From IMG/VR virus record IMGVR_UViG_2617270992_000014: 41,104 bases of DNA, one strand, 5' to 3'. The notes beneath the pieces were generated by a model. It was given only the letters and a program-made list of their open reading frames with translations. It was not told the origin of the DNA and made no database searches. This document shows positions 1,419 to 12,609 of this stretch, in pieces. The stretch's first letter is position 1; each line of letters opens with the position of its first letter. A program made the position numbers and the translations under genes. This DNA is from a virus. Taxonomy: Duplodnaviria > Heunggongvirae > Uroviricota > Caudoviricetes.

Positions 1419-3833
1419 TTAAAAATCAGCCTGACTCGGGATCAGTTTTTGCCAGATAGCTGAAACTTGTTTTGCCTGGTGACGTGCATCATCGAGTGCA
1501 TTGTGAGGTACACCTTCGAATGGAATAGTCATTCTGACATCAAAGCCAATGGAATTTCCCAGTTCAACAATTGTGCGTACATCGCGATCGTTGCAGTAGC
1601 GCCACGGGCAGGGGATGCCCTGTCGTTCATATGAACGGCGTAAAATTACGTTGTCGAAGTTGGCTCCATTTCCCCAGACTCGAACATAAAATCCACAGGA
1701 GTTTTCATCTATAAATTCCCGCAATTGCAGTAGTGCATCATCTAACGGAATTTCATCGGTCAGAATGGCAGATTGCGCCTCACGTGATTGCTTAAGCCAC
1801 CATTTAATGACGTCACGATCAATGACTCCGCCAGCAGTATCCAGATCGATGGTCTTGCTAAACTCCGGCCCCATCTCTCCGGTCTGCGGATCGAAAAATA
1901 TTGCACCTAATGAGATAATCGGGGCGTCGGGATTTTTTCCCATGGTTTCAAGGTCGATCATCAGGTGGTGCCGCACTCTGCTGGTGGATGTGATAACGTG
2001 ATGACCGTTCACCGCAATTAAGGGATCTGCTGTCTCGCCAGTTTCACTATCGCTGGCGTGGTCCTGAGCGCTGCCAGCATTCTCATTGTGCGGATGTTCA
2101 GCGCCTTCCATTTCCTCCGGATCATTTTCCTTAGCTTCAACCTGATTCTCTTCATCGAATATTTCTTGGTATGTTGCGTCGCCCATCACCGCACCACAGT
2201 CAGGGCAGTTACCCCCGCCAGTCTGGCCGCAGGCATTGCAGGCTATTTCCGGTTCCTGTTGCACTACTGGCTCAGGTTGTTTCACATCCGGGCTGTTTTT
2301 TTCCGTTTCTGGCTGGTTCTGGTACACAGAATCGCGAGTCTGGATCCCCTTCACCCATTTCGGATCGTTCGGGTCGCTAATCCCTGCAACAAATTCACCA
2401 CGTGATACTGCAAGCAGCTGATTGGCGTCAGGCTGGCTGATATTGGCTGCCTGCATAATTTTGTTTACTTCGTCAGCGGTAACTTTTACCTGATTAACCG
2501 GATCTATCTGTGCCTGAGCATCCAGCGATTGCGTGTCCTGGCGATGTTCAGTTGCATTCGGTTCCATTGTTTCAGCCGTTGCCTGTTCATCTGCCATTGC
2601 GTCAGACGGTTGTGATTTTTCCACATTATTTTTTTCTTCTTCTGTTTCGCGTTCAGCAGCCAGTTCGCGGTTAACTTCTTCCAGGATATCTTTTTCCGGC
2701 GTATGCCGGGCAGCTGTGAGAGTTTCCTTGCTGGGGTTCTCGTGATCAGTCTCTGTTAAATAGGCGTTGATATACCCCTGAAGACGTCCCGGGTAATGAT
2801 AAAACTCAGGGTGTGCGCTCCGGATAAGTGCAAAAATAGCGGCGCGGGAATAATCCAGGATACCCGGGATTGCGCGAAGTGCTGCGGACCATTCTTTGAA
2901 CGGACTTTCTTTCTTCCGGACGATTTCTTTTGCGCGACGATAAACGCTGCCCGGAATTTCATAAATATTAAAATCCATCGGAAGTGTGGCCGCTGCAATC
3001 TCCACATCCAGCGTATCGAAGGTGTGTACTAAATTCGGATTGCGATCGGTTTTGTTCCCTCCACCGGCATTAGCACCGGAAGCCGTGCGGGTGATGCGTG
3101 AAACACGATTTCCTTTCATCCACTCTTTTGTCAGCAGACCGCGATCGGTGTAGTCAGCGCCCAGGTATGCTTCGAAAAAAGCAGTCATCAGTCCCAGGTC
3201 TGAATTACCAGGATTAGGGAAAACTTTGTCAGTGTCACGAACCAGTTTGTGGAGATCGCGAATTTCCAGCGGTTCGAGTTGCGCTGCTTTATTTGAGATG
3301 GCCAGCGCGGTAACGGCGGGAAGTTTTTCATCCTGTGCGTTATGTAATGCGCGTAGTTCGCCCCGCGAAACGTGTGTGATCGGTTTTTCGCTGCCGTGCT
3401 GTGCCAGCCATCGAACAGGCAGAATCTGACCTGAAACCGGCAGGAGCATATTCTCCTCAATCTCAGCCATGTCTTCGCCGTTGACGTTGGTATTGTCAGT
3501 GCTGGCTGGTTTATCCTGAACAGAGGGCGAGGGCGCGATAAGCACCATTGTGATACCATCTTCCCCGCCTTTTTCGTATCGGTTGCAGAATTCGGTATCA
3601 AACACGCCTTCCGGAGGAAGGTCATTCACAACGGGTAAATGGACGCGAACAGGTTTTTTAAAATCCTCTTCGTCAAATCCTGCATCGTCCATTGCGACAA
3701 CACCGCGTGATATTGCAACCGATAATTTTTTTGCTGTGCGCCAGTAAAAACCGCCTTTAATCCCAAGACGTTTTCTGACTTTGTCATTTTTGGCTTCGTA
3801 ATACAGTGCAATTTCTTCTTTATCAGTGCTCAT
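1419..3833 (-). CDS. Large multidomain early protein with C-terminal DEDDh (DnaQ-like) 3'-5' exonuclease domain, central Cys4 zinc-ribbon and acidic low-complexity linker
   Basis: 804-aa ORF. C-terminal about 190 aa shows motifs IDLETMG, NGANFDNVIL and HNALDDARH consistent with DEDDh exonuclease motifs I-III. CNACGQTGGGNCPDCG is a zinc-ribbon motif. N-terminal about 550 aa unrecognised. Confidence 0.7.
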   Translation of the reverse strand: MSTDKEEIALYYEAKNDKVRKRLGIKGGFYWRTAKKLSVAISRGVVAMDDAGFDEEDFKKPVRVHLPVVNDLPPEGVFDTEFCNRYEKGGEDGITMVLIAPSPSVQDKPASTDNTNVNGEDMAEIEENMLLPVSGQILPVRWLAQHGSEKPITHVSRGELRALHNAQDEKLPAVTALAISNKAAQLEPLEIRDLHKLVRDTDKVFPNPGNSDLGLMTAFFEAYLGADYTDRGLLTKEWMKGNRVSRITRTASGANAGGGNKTDRNPNLVHTFDTLDVEIAAATLPMDFNIYEIPGSVYRRAKEIVRKKESPFKEWSAALRAIPGILDYSRAAIFALIRSAHPEFYHYPGRLQGYINAYLTETDHENPSKETLTAARHTPEKDILEEVNRELAAERETEEEKNNVEKSQPSDAMADEQATAETMEPNATEHRQDTQSLDAQAQIDPVNQVKVTADEVNKIMQAANISQPDANQLLAVSRGEFVAGISDPNDPKWVKGIQTRDSVYQNQPETEKNSPDVKQPEPVVQQEPEIACNACGQTGGGNCPDCGAVMGDATYQEIFDEENQVEAKENDPEEMEGAEHPHNENAGSAQDHASDSETGETADPLIAVNGHHVITSTSRVRHHLMIDLETMGKNPDAPIISLGAIFFDPQTGEMGPEFSKTIDLDTAGGVIDRDVIKWWLKQSREAQSAILTDEIPLDDALLQLREFIDENSCGFYVRVWGNGANFDNVILRRSYERQGIPCPWRYCNDRDVRTIVELGNSIGFDVRMTIPFEGVPHNALDDARHQAKQVSAIWQKLIPSQADF

Positions 3834-3909
3834 TGATAAACCTCATTACAGATTTAAGGGTGAACAAATCCCTGCCATTGCTGGCATATAAAATGAAACC
3901 AGATATTAT

Positions 3910-4167
3910 TTACGGCGCTGTTTTAAGTCCTGCCGGGATTTCGGTATTATCCATGCGAATAACTTTCTCGACCGGATAACAGTTACCGGGAATTTTCTGT
4001 TCTGCTGCGGCAGCCATACATTCTTTCATTGAACCATATATACCAGTAACCACATCAACAGGTTCGCCAGTATTAAGAAAAACTGTCAGAGTGAGAGCAA
4101 TTGCTGTATTCATTGCCAGCATCCTTTTTGCATCAGACGCAAACGGGCCAGCATTGAAACAATGCAT
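3910..4167 (-). CDS. Hypothetical small early protein (start uncertain, possibly at internal Met)
   Basis: 85-aa ORF in the leftward early operon with a hydrophobic central segment; no recognisable domain. Confidence 0.35.
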   Translation of the reverse strand: MHCFNAGPFASDAKRMLAMNTAIALTLTVFLNTGEPVDVVTGIYGSMKECMAAAAEQKIPGNCYPVEKVIRMDNTEIPAGLKTAP

Positions 4168-4433
4168 ATTTGATTTAATAGCTCCCGTTCGTGTTTTCTC
4201 TTATTAATGGCATCTTCAGTAAATACAGGGTTACTGATTCTGACACCAATTTCAAAACAACCTTCAGACGTATTGACGTTTGGTAATAACGTTTCCATTA
4301 TCGCGTCCTCAACAATGAATTTTGTGATGCGGTGCCTGGTGCCTCCAGGTGACGTTAACCAGTTAACAATTAACGCCGGAATACAGGGACCCGCCTGCAA
4401 GTACCTACCCATAAGTATTGATACGGAGAACAA
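4110..4433 (-). CDS. Hypothetical small early protein (true start probably at the internal METLLPN Met)
   Basis: 107-aa ORF, AT-rich, same orientation as neighbours; overlaps the previous ORF in another frame. Confidence 0.3.
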   Translation of the reverse strand: MFSVSILMGRYLQAGPCIPALIVNWLTSPGGTRHRITKFIVEDAIMETLLPNVNTSEGCFEIGVRISNPVFTEDAINKRKHERELLNQICIVSMLARLRLMQKGCWQ

Positions 4434-4624
4434 ATGGTCTTTTAACTGTTCCGCGTGCGCTTAGCCGCATTCACCGCATCACAAAATTCACTTTAAAAAG
4501 GGCGGACATCAGCCAGCAATGAAAACTGATGCCGCCAAAGGTGCTAATCAACATGAAGTATTACGTAAGATGAATTCAACAAAACGCAACGAGATGGCAT
4601 CACTTATTGAAATAGCTATTGATT

Positions 4625-4999
4625 TTAATGATTAATCGAAATCTCATGGCTAGCTGTAACACTCCCGTCTGTGGCGGGATGCTTTAAATCACAGGAATTA
4701 ATGCTTCTTGTTGCGAAGTAATTTTCAAGGGGGTTCATTCGAATCCCTTTCTGTTTCATTAACAAGCCAAATCCCTTATTAATGATGTCCATTAGATCCA
4801 GGAAGTATTTTTCATGTAAATCCTGGTTATCAGAGAGCTGCTTCTCTTCGTACAGACCGATAAAGGCACGACGCACGTTACTGGATATAGTATCGATGGT
4901 TTCTTTTTCTACGGTACTCAGGTCAAGAGTCGCCAGTTGGGAACGAACTATATTCGCTGCCATTTCCTGGAATTGCATTGGTAAATCTTTAAATTCCAT
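4625..4999 (-). CDS. Hypothetical early protein
   Basis: 124-aa ORF in the leftward operon, closely followed by the next ORF; no recognisable domain. Confidence 0.45.
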   Translation of the reverse strand: MEFKDLPMQFQEMAANIVRSQLATLDLSTVEKETIDTISSNVRRAFIGLYEEKQLSDNQDLHEKYFLDLMDIINKGFGLLMKQKGIRMNPLENYFATRSINSCDLKHPATDGSVTASHEISINH

Positions 5000-5021
5000 T
5001 ATTAGCCTCGTTGGTTAGCTA

Positions 5022-5240
5022 TTAACGTGGGTATGTAATCATTCTGGCAATGCTTAATGCCGCTGCTTTTTCCAGTCTGGTGATATCCTGCTCCAGAGCG
5101 GACAGATTTTCAGCCTGCTTAGCCCTGGCTTCATTGGCCCATTTCAGATCCTGCGCTGCATTAATTTTCTGGCGCATCCACTCATAAAGTTCATCATCGG
5201 TATAGCCTGGTGCGATGATAGTGGGTTCTGGTTTCTGCAT
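5022..5240 (-). CDS. Hypothetical small early protein
   Basis: 72-aa ORF in the leftward early operon; charged, helical-looking; function unknown. Confidence 0.45.
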   Translation of the reverse strand: MQKPEPTIIAPGYTDDELYEWMRQKINAAQDLKWANEARAKQAENLSALEQDITRLEKAAALSIARMITYPR

Positions 5241-5311
5241 GTCAGCTCCTTGTGGTTAGCGTTGCCTGCTTTTAACCACGTCAGGCGAGGTGGTATCCTC
5301 TGAGGGGTCTG

Positions 5312-5668
5312 TTACTCGAGAGGAAATTGGTTATGAATACAATCAAGTTTTCTTGCCCAGAATGTGGTGGCGAAGTCTTTGACACATCCTTTAAGCCGCA
5401 GGGCTCTGACAGTTTCGCGGGAGCCATCTGCAAAAATTGTGGTCACCTTGTAACTGAAGATGAGTCCTCGCAGTTCGATGACGAAATCGTTGACAATATC
5501 TTCGGTGCACTCACCAGAGACTTTCTGAAATAAAGGCGCATACCGCTTAGTTACCGCTCTGATAACTCTTACCTGTCCGGTAATGGCGCTGATGTCAATA
5601 TAAAGCGCCATTGCTGCTTCTTTGCCGATCCTGGGATGCCTTCCATTCTGATGTTTGACTTCGCCCAC
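5312..5668 (-). CDS. Hypothetical first gene of the leftward early operon (GTG start); competes with the antisense Zn-ribbon ORF
   Basis: 118-aa ORF with GAGGA about 8 nt upstream of the GTG on the minus strand. It is not arginine-rich and does not look like an N antiterminator. Fully contains a plus-strand ORF. Confidence 0.3.
   Translation of the reverse strand: MGEVKHQNGRHPRIGKEAAMALYIDISAITGQVRVIRAVTKRYAPLFQKVSGECTEDIVNDFVIELRGLIFSYKVTTIFADGSRETVRALRLKGCVKDFATTFWARKLDCIHNQFPLE
5327..5533 (+). CDS. Small Cys4 zinc-ribbon protein encoded antisense to the leftward early operon
   Basis: 68-aa ORF with CPECGG and CKNCGH motifs (classic C4 zinc ribbon); AGAGGA about 8 nt upstream of the ATG; acidic C-terminus. 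Confidence 0.4.
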   Translation: MVMNTIKFSCPECGGEVFDTSFKPQGSDSFAGAICKNCGHLVTEDESSQFDDEIVDNIFGALTRDFLK

Positions 5669-5856
5669 TGAGAAATCCTCTGTTTCCCCTTAACGCCGGG
5701 GTAGCGGAACAAAAACCTGCTGCATAGTTATTAAAGTTGAACCCTGCCGTCATGTTCTTACGCCTCGGGCTGGCTACTTAACCCCTGACCACTGCCTGGT
5801 AACTCGAAGTATTGCCCTGCGTTCTGTGGGGCGGGGTGGGTTGGTATGTTGTTAAG

Positions 5857-5870
5857 GTAACAAGAGTTAC
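5857..5870. promoter_or_regulatory. Candidate left operator (OL-like) palindrome GTAACAAGAGTTAC
   Basis: 14-bp GTAAC-N4-GTTAC inverted repeat, same architecture as the two palindromes in the repressor-cro intergenic region; lies between the repressor terminator and the first leftward gene. Confidence 0.5.
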
Positions 5871-5910
5871 CATTAGAGTCAATACAATGTTGCAAAAGGT
5901 ACACTTGAGG

Positions 5911-5937
5911 GCATAAAAAACCCGCAATGAATGCGGG
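5911..5937 (-). terminator. Intrinsic terminator downstream of the repressor gene
   Basis: Plus-strand AAAAAA-CCCGCA-ATGAA-TGCGGG reads on the minus strand as a 6-bp GC stem followed by a T-run, immediately after the repressor stop. Confidence 0.6.
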
Positions 5938-5944
5938 TTCTGAC

Positions 5945-6619
5945 TCAGTCTAAGTATTGATGTATTTGTGAAACTTTACCTTTAATGGTGTAACCACCAT
6001 TCAGTTCGATGGGTTTGTAAAGCGGATTCAGTGACAACAGATAGATGTTTGGTCCGTCAATCGCAACTTTTTTTAGTGTTACGTTTGGCGTTCCTTCCAA
6101 TTGGATTAAGATTATTTTTCCCACCAGTTCTCTAATGTTACTTGAGCATGGTGTGATCAGCACGGTAGATCCGTCGGGGATGGTTGGGAGGCCGTTAGAG
6201 TTTGTCATCGCATCTCCCTCAACATGCAATAAAAAAGAGTTTTCAGCGGTTTTTGTCATGACATCAACCCAATTCTTAATACCAGGAATCTCGGTTACTG
6301 GACAACTCATATCCCAATAACCAGCCTGTTCCCACGTTAAAACGGGCAACCGGGCGATGTTGTCACTAATGTAAGGGTACTGATTCAGACGCAGATCATC
6401 GGTTTTATCGTGACAGTCCTTTCCATAAAGAATCCATTCAGGAGATTTGGAAAGCAATTTTGACAGTAGATGCAAATTCTCACCGTCAGGTTTTGAAGAG
6501 CCATTTTCCCATTTTGTTACGGATACACGAGATATGCCGATTGCTTTCGCAACCTGCTGTTGGGTTAATCCAACGTCTTTTCGACGATTCCGAATACGTT
6601 CGCTGATAGTGTTTTTCAT
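5945..6619 (-). CDS. CI-like prophage repressor (N-terminal HTH plus C-terminal LexA/S24-type autopeptidase domain); longer alternative starts at 6661 and 6718
   Basis: HTH segment LTQQQVAKAIGISRVSVTKWENG; C-terminal domain resembles the S24 peptidase fold. The start at 6619 places both operator palindromes in the intergenic region and implies a leaderless transcript as in lambda cI; the longest ORF would overlap cro. Confidence 0.8.
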   Translation of the reverse strand: MKNTISERIRNRRKDVGLTQQQVAKAIGISRVSVTKWENGSSKPDGENLHLLSKLLSKSPEWILYGKDCHDKTDDLRLNQYPYISDNIARLPVLTWEQAGYWDMSCPVTEIPGIKNWVDVMTKTAENSFLLHVEGDAMTNSNGLPTIPDGSTVLITPCSSNIRELVGKIILIQLEGTPNVTLKKVAIDGPNIYLLSLNPLYKPIELNGGYTIKGKVSQIHQYLD

Positions 6620-6633
6620 GTAACCAATGTTAC
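6620..6633. promoter_or_regulatory. Candidate right operator palindrome GTAACCAATGTTAC
   Basis: 14-bp GTAAC-N4-GTTAC inverted repeat abutting the proposed repressor start codon. Confidence 0.55.
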
Positions 6634-6667
6634 TACCAAGTGATGTTGCTATGGTTGACATTTCTAT

Positions 6668-6681
6668 GTAACTATTGTTAC
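6668..6681. promoter_or_regulatory. Candidate right operator palindrome GTAACTATTGTTAC
   Basis: Second GTAAC-N4-GTTAC palindrome 48 bp from the first; TTGACA hexamer at 6655-6660 between them; lies about 30 bp upstream of the cro start. Confidence 0.55.
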
Positions 6682-6710: not shown

Positions 6711-6923
6711 ATGTTCAAAGATGATGTTCTGCGCTATTTCAAAAAAAAGCGACTAGTAGCTGAGGCTCTTGGAATTTCACATGTGGCTGTTGTGCGGTGG
6801 AAAGCAGTTATTCCCAAACTTCGCGCAATGGAACTGGATGAAATTACTAACGGTGAATTGAAATACAACCCAGAACTTTACAAGAAGCAGGATAGCACCT
6901 CGAACGAAGGAAAGAATGATTAA
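6711..6923 (+). CDS. cro: Cro-like small HTH regulator (YdaS-like)
   Basis: 70-aa ORF divergent from the repressor, AGGAG 7 nt upstream; HTH segment RLVAEALGISHVAVVRW. Confidence 0.75.
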   Translation: MFKDDVLRYFKKKRLVAEALGISHVAVVRWKAVIPKLRAMELDEITNGELKYNPELYKKQDSTSNEGKND

Positions 6924-12242: not shown

Positions 12243-12453
12243 AAACGGTTTGCGGGAAAAAGGGAGTTAAGTAAAATTGCTGCGGGTGCTTGAGGCTATC
12301 TGTCTCAGGCATGAACACCAAAAGGCAGATAGAGAAAAGCCCCAGTTAACATTACGCGTCCTGCAAGACGCTTAACATTAATCTGAGGCCCAATCTATGT
12401 CTCACAAATGTAGGTTAGCCTCTTACGCGCCGAAAGGCAAGGAGAAGCAGGCT

Positions 12454-12609
12454 ATGAAGCAGCAAAAGGCGATGTTAATCGTCCTGATCGTCATCTGTTT
12501 AACCGTCATAGCGACGGTACTGGTAACGAGGAAAGACCTCTGCGAGGTACGAATCCGAACCGGCCAGACGGAGGTCGCTGTCTTCACAGCTTACGAACCT
12601 GAGGAGTAA
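12454..12609 (+). CDS. hok: Hok/Gef-family type I toxin (small membrane peptide)
   Basis: MKQQKAMLIVLIVICLTVIATVLVTRKDLCEVRIRTGQTEVAVFTAYEPEE is near-identical in pattern to HokD/RelF-type toxins as recalled; AAGGAG upstream. The track ORF extends upstream to 12397 in the same frame. Confidence 0.8.
   Translation: MKQQKAMLIVLIVICLTVIATVLVTRKDLCEVRIRTGQTEVAVFTAYEPEE

Follow-up and report, generated by a model that had tools for sequence, protein, structure and literature searches.

We analyzed a stretch of 41,104 nucleotides (nt), IMG/VR record IMGVR_UViG_2617270992_000014, which is referred to as a whole as the window. The window is an enterobacterial lambdoid prophage of Escherichia coli, and positions 5250-5760 are 100% identical to the IMG/VR contig 2617270973_000009. 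At the head of its leftward early operon, two open reading frames (ORFs) lie on opposite strands: gene A on the minus strand and gene Z, which encodes a small protein with a putative four-cysteine zinc ribbon, on the plus strand and entirely inside A (Table 1). In an earlier reading made from the letters without database searches (hereafter the sequence-only reading), a plus-strand ORF with CPECGG...CKNCGH was noticed at 5327-5533, wholly within 5312-5668, and the nested arrangement is confirmed here. The motif and the upstream AGAGGA also stand, but the proposed start at TTG 5327, giving a protein of 68 amino acids (aa), is less likely than ATG 5333, giving 66 aa. For A, RefSeq and PHROG 21318 take ATG 5611 (99 aa) as the start, while GTG 5668, with GAGGA 7-8 nt upstream, is the only A start in the window with a good Shine-Dalgarno sequence.

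The two frames are in register, so that the second codon positions pair with each other and the first position of an A codon lies opposite the third of a Z codon. In this classic "shadow" register, stop codons in A can arise only opposite the Z codons TTA, CTA, and TCA, and the antisense frame thus tends to stay open. For the window alone, a 66-codon gene leaves the antisense frame in this register open with a P of ~0.18, and the P for 45 further open codons is ~0.1. As the window sequence is only mildly unusual in this respect, the argument for a nested pair is carried by the comparative data.

Both ORFs are present in public databases, Z as "ECs_2282 family putative zinc-binding protein" and A as a 99-aa "hypothetical protein". 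The Prokaryotic Genome Annotation Pipeline (PGAP) annotated Z in strain EC6 (NZ_CP182398; L001) but A in others (NZ_CP172152, L197; NZ_CP028112, L198), in which the DNA is 97-100% identical. Among the strains with A annotated by PGAP are GF31, which is 100% identical over the stretch, and RM8385, and we therefore rejected the idea that the annotation of Z by PGAP refutes A. As RefSeq/PGAP names either A or Z for nearly identical DNA, pan-genome and prophage gene-content comparisons are inconsistent at this locus. Of 5,426 complete E. coli genomes, 937 carry the module (1,403 places in total), O157:H7 strains being among the carriers. Our literature search found no paper on ECs2282 and none describing the A/Z pair; in a preprint on overlapping genes of enterohemorrhagic E. 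coli, the word "zinc" does not occur and the few passages with "phage" or "ECs" concern other loci.

Table 1. Features in and around the A/Z locus, in window coordinates (position 1 is the first letter of the window).
Feature	Position	Strand	Description
ydfD (DUF1482)	3910..4113	-	67 aa; Pfam PF07358, 70 bits; start overlaps the dicB stop by 4 nt
dicB, cell-division inhibitor	4110..4298	-	62 aa; Pfam PF05358, 131 bits; NCBIfam NF049927, 134 bits (cutoff 100)
DicF-like small RNA (sRNA)	4500..4547	-	Rfam RF00039, 38.5 bits (gathering score 48), E 2.7e-6, full model length
124-aa early ORF	4625..4999	-	phrog_6937 over full length, E 1e-80; PHROG matches all of unknown function
ydfC	5022..5240	-	72 aa; RefSeq name on homologues "protein YdfC"; phrog_1744, E 8e-38
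Promoter-like element for Z	5272..5299	+	TTAACC (5272-5277), 16-nt spacer, TGgTATCCT extended -10 (5291-5299)
Gene A, first ORF of the leftward operon	5312..5668	-	118 aa from GTG 5668; phrog_21318, E 5e-66
Shine-Dalgarno AGAGGA for Z	5319..5324	+	8 nt upstream of ATG 5333
Gene Z, Cys4 zinc ribbon	5333..5533	+	66 aa; C8, C11, C33, C36; acidic C-terminal helix; entirely inside A
Hairpin, candidate Z terminator	5578..5626	+	13-bp stem, 13-nt loop, then CUUCUUUGCC; inside the N-terminal coding part of A
Candidate pL (leftward promoter)	5853..5882	-	TTGACT (5882-5877), 17-nt spacer, TACCTT (5859-5854); consensus-level assignment
Operator OL GTAACtcttGTTAC	5857-5870		within the pL spacer; palindrome GTAAC-N4-GTTAC
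CI-type repressor	5945..6661	-	helix-turn-helix HTH_3 and Peptidase_S24 (Pfam, NCBIfam); DicA-like N-terminal part; RefSeq "LexA family protein"

Z scored 57.2 bits against the NCBIfam profile NF047912 (ECs_2282_CxxC; cutoff 37), with residues 6-61 aligned to positions 1-56 of the 60 in the profile. An exhaustive search with a hidden Markov model of the family against 1.84 billion representatives (E <= 1e-3) recovered 61 clusters, defined at 50% identity. Almost all of them comprise proteins of 58-77 aa with aligned starts and stops and the pattern CPxCG...CxxCG. Across 59 sequences of the family, three of the four cysteines are invariant and the fourth is conserved in at least 90%. Z-like frames of 29-36% identity were found by tblastn in phage HK639 and in Klebsiella and Enterobacter phages, and these frames keep CPDCGSE...CA[DN]CGREITKDDVV. 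All four cysteine codons are TGC or TGT in 11 deep lineages, where the T/C change that is silent in Z exchanges Ala and Thr at the facing residue of A; if A alone were coding, the P of these codon choices would be ~1e-24.6. Substitutions in the overlap, counted by parsimony and listed for A position 1 (= Z position 3), then position 2, then A position 3, numbered 79/15/43 in the window family including the Klebsiella and Citrobacter relatives, 63/10/22 in the E. coli types alone, and 90/17/33 in the HK639 family. Rough arithmetic from the overlap counts yields an omega of ~0.2 for Z. This synonymous-site signature in two phage families indicates that the Z frame is under strong purifying selection, and we regard Z as almost certainly a genuine, autonomous, moron-like small gene.

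The comparison also revealed nonsense alleles of Z that leave A intact in two independent E. coli lineages. A stop codon at Z E14, generated by TTC>TTA (F99L in A), was found in ~18 loci, and another at Z E44, generated by CTC>CTA (silent in A), in one locus. The reverse case, A interrupted and Z intact, was absent among ~185 enterobacterial loci, and no interruption of Z was seen in the HK639-type loci examined. According to the sequence-only reading, homologues with one frame interrupted and the other conserved should identify the spurious member of the pair. Such homologues exist in one direction only, yet they do not make Z spurious, as Z is the more strongly selected of the two frames. 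Taken alone, the nonsense pattern would mark Z as the spurious member; combined with the selection data, it shows that some cryptic prophages can dispense with Z, or that Z is decaying in them. Apart from these two lineages and some environmental Z lineages in which A is absent, both frames are intact in 15 or more deep lineages. The more general statement of that reading, that one of the two ORFs is real and possibly both, agrees well with our data: Z is selected and belongs to a broad family of ~65-aa zinc ribbons, and A is open in all ~185 enterobacterial loci.

Z appears to carry expression signals of its own. The promoter-like element ends 33 nt before the ATG of Z and just past the stop codon of A (in the sense of A). 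It is invariant in the E. coli-type variants, even in those with differing flanks, and related elements were found in the P0032 family and at HK639-type loci, the consensus of the upstream element across families being TT(T/A)A(A/G)CCAC-N10-GTGGTATCCT. In 9 of the 11 deep lineages, the Z start is preceded at a distance of 11-13 nt by AGGA or GAGG, also where that DNA is outside A. As had been proposed from the window sequence, ribosome-binding sites are plausible on both strands, and at the sequence level the Shine-Dalgarno sequence and the start codon are conserved for Z and for A. Downstream of Z, the hairpin was calculated to fold at -21.1 kcal/mol on the plus strand (z of -3.6) versus -13.2 kcal/mol on the minus strand, and CUUCUUU follows the stem in the window. 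Across loci, a hairpin on the Z strand lies 34-44 nt after the Z stop; in the HK639-type loci, it is a canonical GC stem followed by the GTTTTTTTAT T-run, 34-36 nt after the stop.

The leader of Z harbors a direct repeat, CCCCAACAG, in two copies ~30 nt apart and 10-60 nt upstream of the Z start in the HK639-type loci L105, L174, L175, L178, and L179. The repeat CCCCAACAG is conserved across the superfamily and could be a binding site or part of a structured leader.

Regarding A, the frame is free of stop codons in ~100 E. coli-type and ~85 HK639-type loci (the ~185 enterobacterial loci mentioned above). P0032, P0035, and four lineages from soil or peat likewise have an uninterrupted A frame. 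Depending on the Leu/Ser content of Z and the phage codon usage, the antisense frame would be open by chance with a probability of 0.11-0.63 per lineage; the product over 11 lineages is ~1e-6.6, a value that overstates the significance because the lineages are not fully independent. A reaches 25 or more codons past Z to an ATG with a conserved GAGG or GGAG 6-9 nt upstream. In this part outside Z, the N-terminal motif [IVF]D[ATI][STN] is conserved with synonymous codon changes, the Ser being encoded by AGC, AGT, or TCA. In a six-frame test on the 96 nt beyond the Z stop in the deep groups, the A frame scored 25.1 versus 18.1-20.6 for the other frames, and it contained 0.31 stops per 32 codons versus 0.8-2.9 in the others. 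Substitutions outside the overlap showed the periodicity of the A frame in both the window family (33/19/48) and the HK639 family (34/27/56).

Coding by A codons 2-19, the part between GTG 5668 and ATG 5611, is unsupported, as the substitutions there lack periodicity (22/15/16). A codon-choice test on the Ser and Leu codons of Z in the E. coli family lacked power for want of variation.

A and Z were found together in at least four different genomic contexts, and in every context seen A is co-oriented with the surrounding operon. A precedes ydfC-dicB in the pL operon of the window, precedes Lambda_Kil...xis-int in a pL operon of L089-L094, lies directly after cro in the rightward (pR) operon of the Klebsiella and Citrobacter prophages L083, L084, L095, and L096, follows the tape-measure gene in the tail operon of phage 2b LV-2017, and comes first after pL/putL in HK639. 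Members of the broad Z family that have no A frame mostly point the same way as their neighbors, whereas the neighbors are on the A strand when A is present. A is absent from ~10 environmental Z lineages and from Agarivorans. The A/Z pair moves as one unit between genomic contexts, and the pairing has been kept from enteric phages to soil metagenomes. A search for A in the genome contigs collection returned no match, and neither did a search for the distant Z members P0035, P0046, and P0054 in the viral contigs. Separately, a distant A/Z pair with a Z of 39% identity was observed in the metagenome contigs L190 and L191, where it is flanked by a transposase gene of the IS1595 family and a DUF2513 gene and no phage early region is recognizable around it.

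On balance, we regard 5272-5668 as a two-strand coding cassette at the head of a dicB-type leftward early operon. On the plus strand, a sigma-70-like extended -10 element, the Shine-Dalgarno sequence, the 66-aa zinc-ribbon ORF, and the terminator-like hairpin would make Z a self-contained unit with the architecture of a moron. On the minus strand, A (99-118 aa) would start just outside the Z terminator, end just before the Z promoter-like element, and be the first gene of the pL transcript. As the pL and Z transcripts converge, alternating expression may be expected: Z would be made while pL is repressed in the prophage state, and A would be made once pL fires and its transcription overrides that of Z. 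In addition, leaky expression of the toxic dicF/dicB/ydfD genes may be reduced by the transcription of Z and by the resulting antisense RNA. For both proteins, superinfection exclusion or another defense-type role is the leading guess, made by analogy with olg1 and gene 10 of phage Fc02 (see below), and A may matter mainly through being translated across the cassette, so that the early transcript stays coupled to ribosomes, rather than through its sequence. We tentatively propose, as a possibility well short of probable, that A/Z is an ancient and mobile strand switch that yields a zinc-ribbon protein when the operon is repressed and a protein from the other strand when the early operon fires. 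Both products would be functional (e.g., as an exclusion/defense pair as in Fc02) and mutually exclusive via convergent transcription, and the switch would help to silence dicF/dicB/ydfD.

Several observations weigh against the two-strand coding cassette. Z is broken by nonsense changes in ~19 of the ~100 E. coli-type loci, and an automated consensus scan of the window listed neither the promoter nor the terminator of Z, both of which are consensus-level candidates. In the E. coli family, the overlap changes that are non-synonymous in A and silent in Z amount to ~0.97 per site, compared with ~0.98 in the presumably non-coding codons 2-19, and A codons 20-45 outside the overlap show no periodicity (20/12/20). 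The codon identity at identical Z residues between deep lineages is 0.46 versus 0.43 expected from the codon usage of the family; as the synonymous codons of Z are no better conserved than expected, the A sequence inside the overlap looks unconstrained. The conserved N-terminus of A (AP...DA and a Lys run) is partly the complement of the arms of the Z-strand hairpin and of its T-run, a coincidence that could account for some of the conservation of A. Finally, the AlphaFold (AF2) models are of low confidence, the predicted local distance difference test score (pLDDT) being 60.8 for A and 61.8 for Z. Altogether, the substitution data suggest that selection on A is detectable outside the overlap but not inside, and we consider it likely that A is translated.

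In a rival explanation, only Z would be functional and A would be a shadow ORF, kept open by the register, picked by gene callers for its greater length, and conserved as an echo of Z and the Z terminator. The synonymous-site signature is in the Z frame, the apparent omega of A in the overlap is ~1, the synonymous codons of Z bear no extra constraint, and the Z lineages of environmental origin and of Agarivorans do without A. The A residues that coincide with the hairpin arms and the T-run, the low pLDDT of the A model, and the lack of any match of A in Pfam, PDB, or PADLOC fit the same explanation. What it leaves unexplained is the strict co-orientation of A with the host operons, and it is at odds with an A frame that is open in all ~185 enterobacterial loci and 15 or more deep lineages and continues for 25 or more codons past Z to an ATG with a Shine-Dalgarno sequence. 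Moreover, outside Z both the codon periodicity and the six-frame test favor the A frame, and the D-T-S motif of A persists where the GC hairpin is missing, with the Ser encoded by both AGY and TCA. We thus find it doubtful that A is merely a shadow, albeit a reading to be taken seriously. The opposite proposal, that only A is real and the zinc-ribbon frame is its chance shadow, can draw on the many phage annotations that call A alone (e.g., HK639_45 and KP12_367) and on the two E. coli lineages in which Z is interrupted and A intact. We rejected it as effectively refuted: every lineage has TGY at the four Cys positions while the facing residue of A changes between Ala and Thr (P as given above), substitutions peak at Z third positions in two families, the Z family reaches loci with no A frame, and the Shine-Dalgarno sequence of Z is conserved outside A.

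Alternatively, A may be translated while its product is irrelevant. Ribosomes would then be kept on the early mRNA across the antisense Z, preventing Rho-dependent polarity or pairing with the Z RNA, and selection would act on the openness of the frame, on the start signals, and perhaps on the first residues. The open frame, the conserved ATG and Shine-Dalgarno sequence, and the near-neutral constraint in the overlap are consistent with this idea, as is the presence of A where Z is antisense to the operon and its absence, in most cases, where Z is co-oriented. On the other hand, the N-terminal motif is kept from enteric phages to soil metagenomes, suggesting a role at the product level, and HK639-type phages have annotated put-RNA antitermination upstream. 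The put and N antitermination systems should already suppress Rho termination. We consider an irrelevant A product unlikely.

The closest precedent by arrangement is phage Fc02, in which olg1 (~7.9 kDa) is expressed in the lysogen and lies antisense to gene 10 of the early operon next to the repressor; both genes make protein and confer exclusion of superinfecting phages (Ramirez-Sanchez et al., 2023, PMC9936078). The likeness lies in a small gene antisense to a gene of the early lytic operon and was drawn from the arrangement. Fc02 is a Mu-like Beetrevirus, and expression and exclusion are experimental findings there, whereas A/Z is known from sequence; A/Z differs further in being fully nested, conserved over many lineages, and mobile between contexts. 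Among bacteria, antisense overlapping genes have been described in E. coli O157:H7 as nog1/citC, laoB/ECs5115, ano/ECs2385, asa, and pop/ompA (bioRxiv 10.1101/2020.11.18.388249). They resemble A/Z in that one ORF is embedded antisense in another and annotation pipelines keep one of the two. Descriptions of the O157:H7 cases portray them as young and of narrow distribution, with ribosome profiling and phenotypes as the evidence. A/Z instead rests on comparative genomics, and the embedded ORF is the older and better conserved of the two, the reverse of the usual situation.

Phage morons are promoter-gene-terminator cassettes inserted between phage genes, as recognized by Hendrix and colleagues. 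Z resembles them in its promoter-like element, its own Shine-Dalgarno sequence, its terminator-like hairpin, and its occurrence at different places in otherwise unrelated temperate phages (heading the pL operon, behind cro in the pR operon, behind the tape-measure gene, and beside an IS1595 transposase gene). In contrast to a classical moron, which sits between genes, Z is spanned in its entirety by an opposite-strand ORF of the operon, and that ORF travels with it. Short antisense RNAs are also familiar in phages: lambda OOP against cII and P22 sar against ant are non-coding, and coliphage 186 has convergent promoters. A/Z shares with them a short transcript that would converge on the early operon, in a geometry that allows transcriptional interference and RNA pairing, and differs from OOP and sar in that its antisense transcript would be the mRNA of a conserved protein.

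The coding of two real proteins by long antisense overlaps in bacteria and phages is still a matter of dispute, and the cases put forward so far are mostly young, lineage-specific, and supported mainly by ribosome profiling. A/Z is supported instead by deep comparative evidence, namely a conserved embedded Z, an A frame kept open with its start signals, and joint travel. The pair should be easily testable, being common in E. coli including O157:H7 and present in the cultivable phage HK639, with natural single-base alleles that stop one frame and are silent or mild in the other. The cassette also heads a toxic dicF/dicB/ydfD operon, and an antisense promoter at that place could bear on the silencing of the operon.

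Searches for structure and function gave little beyond generic zinc-ribbon matches for Z. Its AF2 model consists of three short strands and the C-terminal helix. The best Foldseek matches were ribbons of the Rpa12/Rpb9/TFIIB type at insignificant E-values (>= 0.23), only generic zinc ribbons being found in PDB. For A, neither Foldseek against PDB nor the sequence and profile searches led to a fold, PDB, Pfam, or PADLOC assignment; the PDB sequence and profile searches were empty for the pair, and the A and Z profiles are unrelated to each other. In the comparison with the Lar family, only phrog_6422 appeared (E of 0.0098, with no stretch passing alone) and there was no Pfam Lar match at E <= 0.01, while the Ogr-type and TFIIB-type matches were insignificant. 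The PADLOC candidate PDC-M14A matched the window Z with an E of 0.0019 and the HK639 Z with an E of 6.3e-6; the match is weak and confined to positions 18-90 of 152, and PDC-M14 is itself a candidate system. This match and the Fc02 precedent are the sole hints toward the anti-defense or host-takeover functions that the sequence-only reading had in mind for early-left accessory genes.

The region 3910-5668 in which the pair lies is a leftward operon of the Qin/dicB type that comprises the known ydfC-dicF-dicB-ydfD module of Qin-type prophages. The order after pL and the leftward operator (OL) is gene A, YdfC, the 124-aa ORF, the DicF-like sRNA, DicB, and YdfD. The same type of operon was seen by megablast in phage and E. 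coli genome collections, the RefSeq names at the matches being YdfC, DicB, DUF1482/YdfD, and exonuclease, and strains EC6 and GF31 have the same dicB/ydfD arrangement in RefSeq. The sequence-only reading described five small unknown genes on the minus strand (3910-4167, 4110-4433, 4625-4999, 5022-5240, and 5312-5668). The ORFs are there, but "unknown" is mostly wrong because three of the five are DicB, YdfD/DUF1482, and YdfC; the real DicB is the 62-aa ORF at 4110-4298, shorter than the one listed at 4110-4433. Their AT-rich look was borne out, with a GC content of 0.40-0.44 over 3501-5000 against ~0.5 or higher in most of the window. None of the five ORFs has a profile match to N, cIII, Kil, Gam, or Ral in Pfam or NCBIfam, which return only DicB and DUF1482, so that the claimed lack of resemblance is correct by sequence; it is misleading nonetheless, as DicB is a division inhibitor like Kil. 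The DicF-like sRNA was overlooked, although phage Tritos has an annotated DicF at the equivalent place.

The regulation of the dicBF operon in the cryptic prophage Qin of K-12 has been published (PMC10448788; also PMC5069750). The window shares with it a repressor, a leftward promoter, small ORFs, ydfC, a DicF-like sRNA, dicB, and ydfD, DicB and YdfD being clear family members. K-12 and phage Tritos have ydfA and ydfB where the window has the A/Z cassette. The window further differs from Qin in a repressor with an S24 autocleavage domain, in the additional 124-aa gene between ydfC and dicF, and in a DicF match below the Rfam gathering score.

The placement of pL and OL proposed earlier is reasonable, because the palindrome within the TTGACT-17-TACCTT site on the minus strand recurs between the repressor and cro, where GTAAC-N4-GTTAC is found again at 6620-6633 and 6668-6681. 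The N-terminus of the repressor scored 79 bits against DicA (NF007257), under the cutoff of 101. By our reading of the sequence, the repressor gene is terminated by a hairpin at ~5917-5940 with a T-run behind it on the minus strand; the gene faces a P22-Cro/DicC-like gene (6711-6923) and a YdaT/CII-like gene. A 52-aa ORF at 5595-5753 on the minus strand lies in the pL leader in another frame than A and is unlikely to be a gene; a frameshift in some E. coli variants (protein P0013) joins it to A, giving a product of 146 aa. In the related E. coli prophages L087, L088, L097, L099, and L100, toxin-antitoxin modules (PaaA2/ParE, or HigB with a helix-turn-helix partner) lie between the repressor and gene A, and A is therefore further from the repressor there than in the window.

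The 124-aa ORF has no match in Pfam or NCBIfam, and its N-terminal ~55-75 aa are common to phrogs 1363, 2151, and 9419. The N-terminal ~58 aa correspond to a phrog_9419-type module that in Yersinia massiliensis (L187) precedes an A-like domain as an in-frame fusion, and in phage 2b LV-2017 a different module (phrog_21096) is joined to an A-like domain in the same way. The leader between DicF and dicB contains a STnc100-like match at 4321-4488 on the minus strand (34.6 bits; gathering score 47; E of 2.7e-5). Downstream of ydfD, an 804-aa ORF at 1419-3833 on the minus strand has homologues named by RefSeq as exonuclease or 3'-5' exoribonuclease domain protein and contains an internal CNACGQTGGGNCPDCGA motif. 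The sole Rfam match above threshold in the window is a hok/sok-type locus at 12284-12459 on the plus strand (sok, RF01794; 118.8 bits; gathering score 59).

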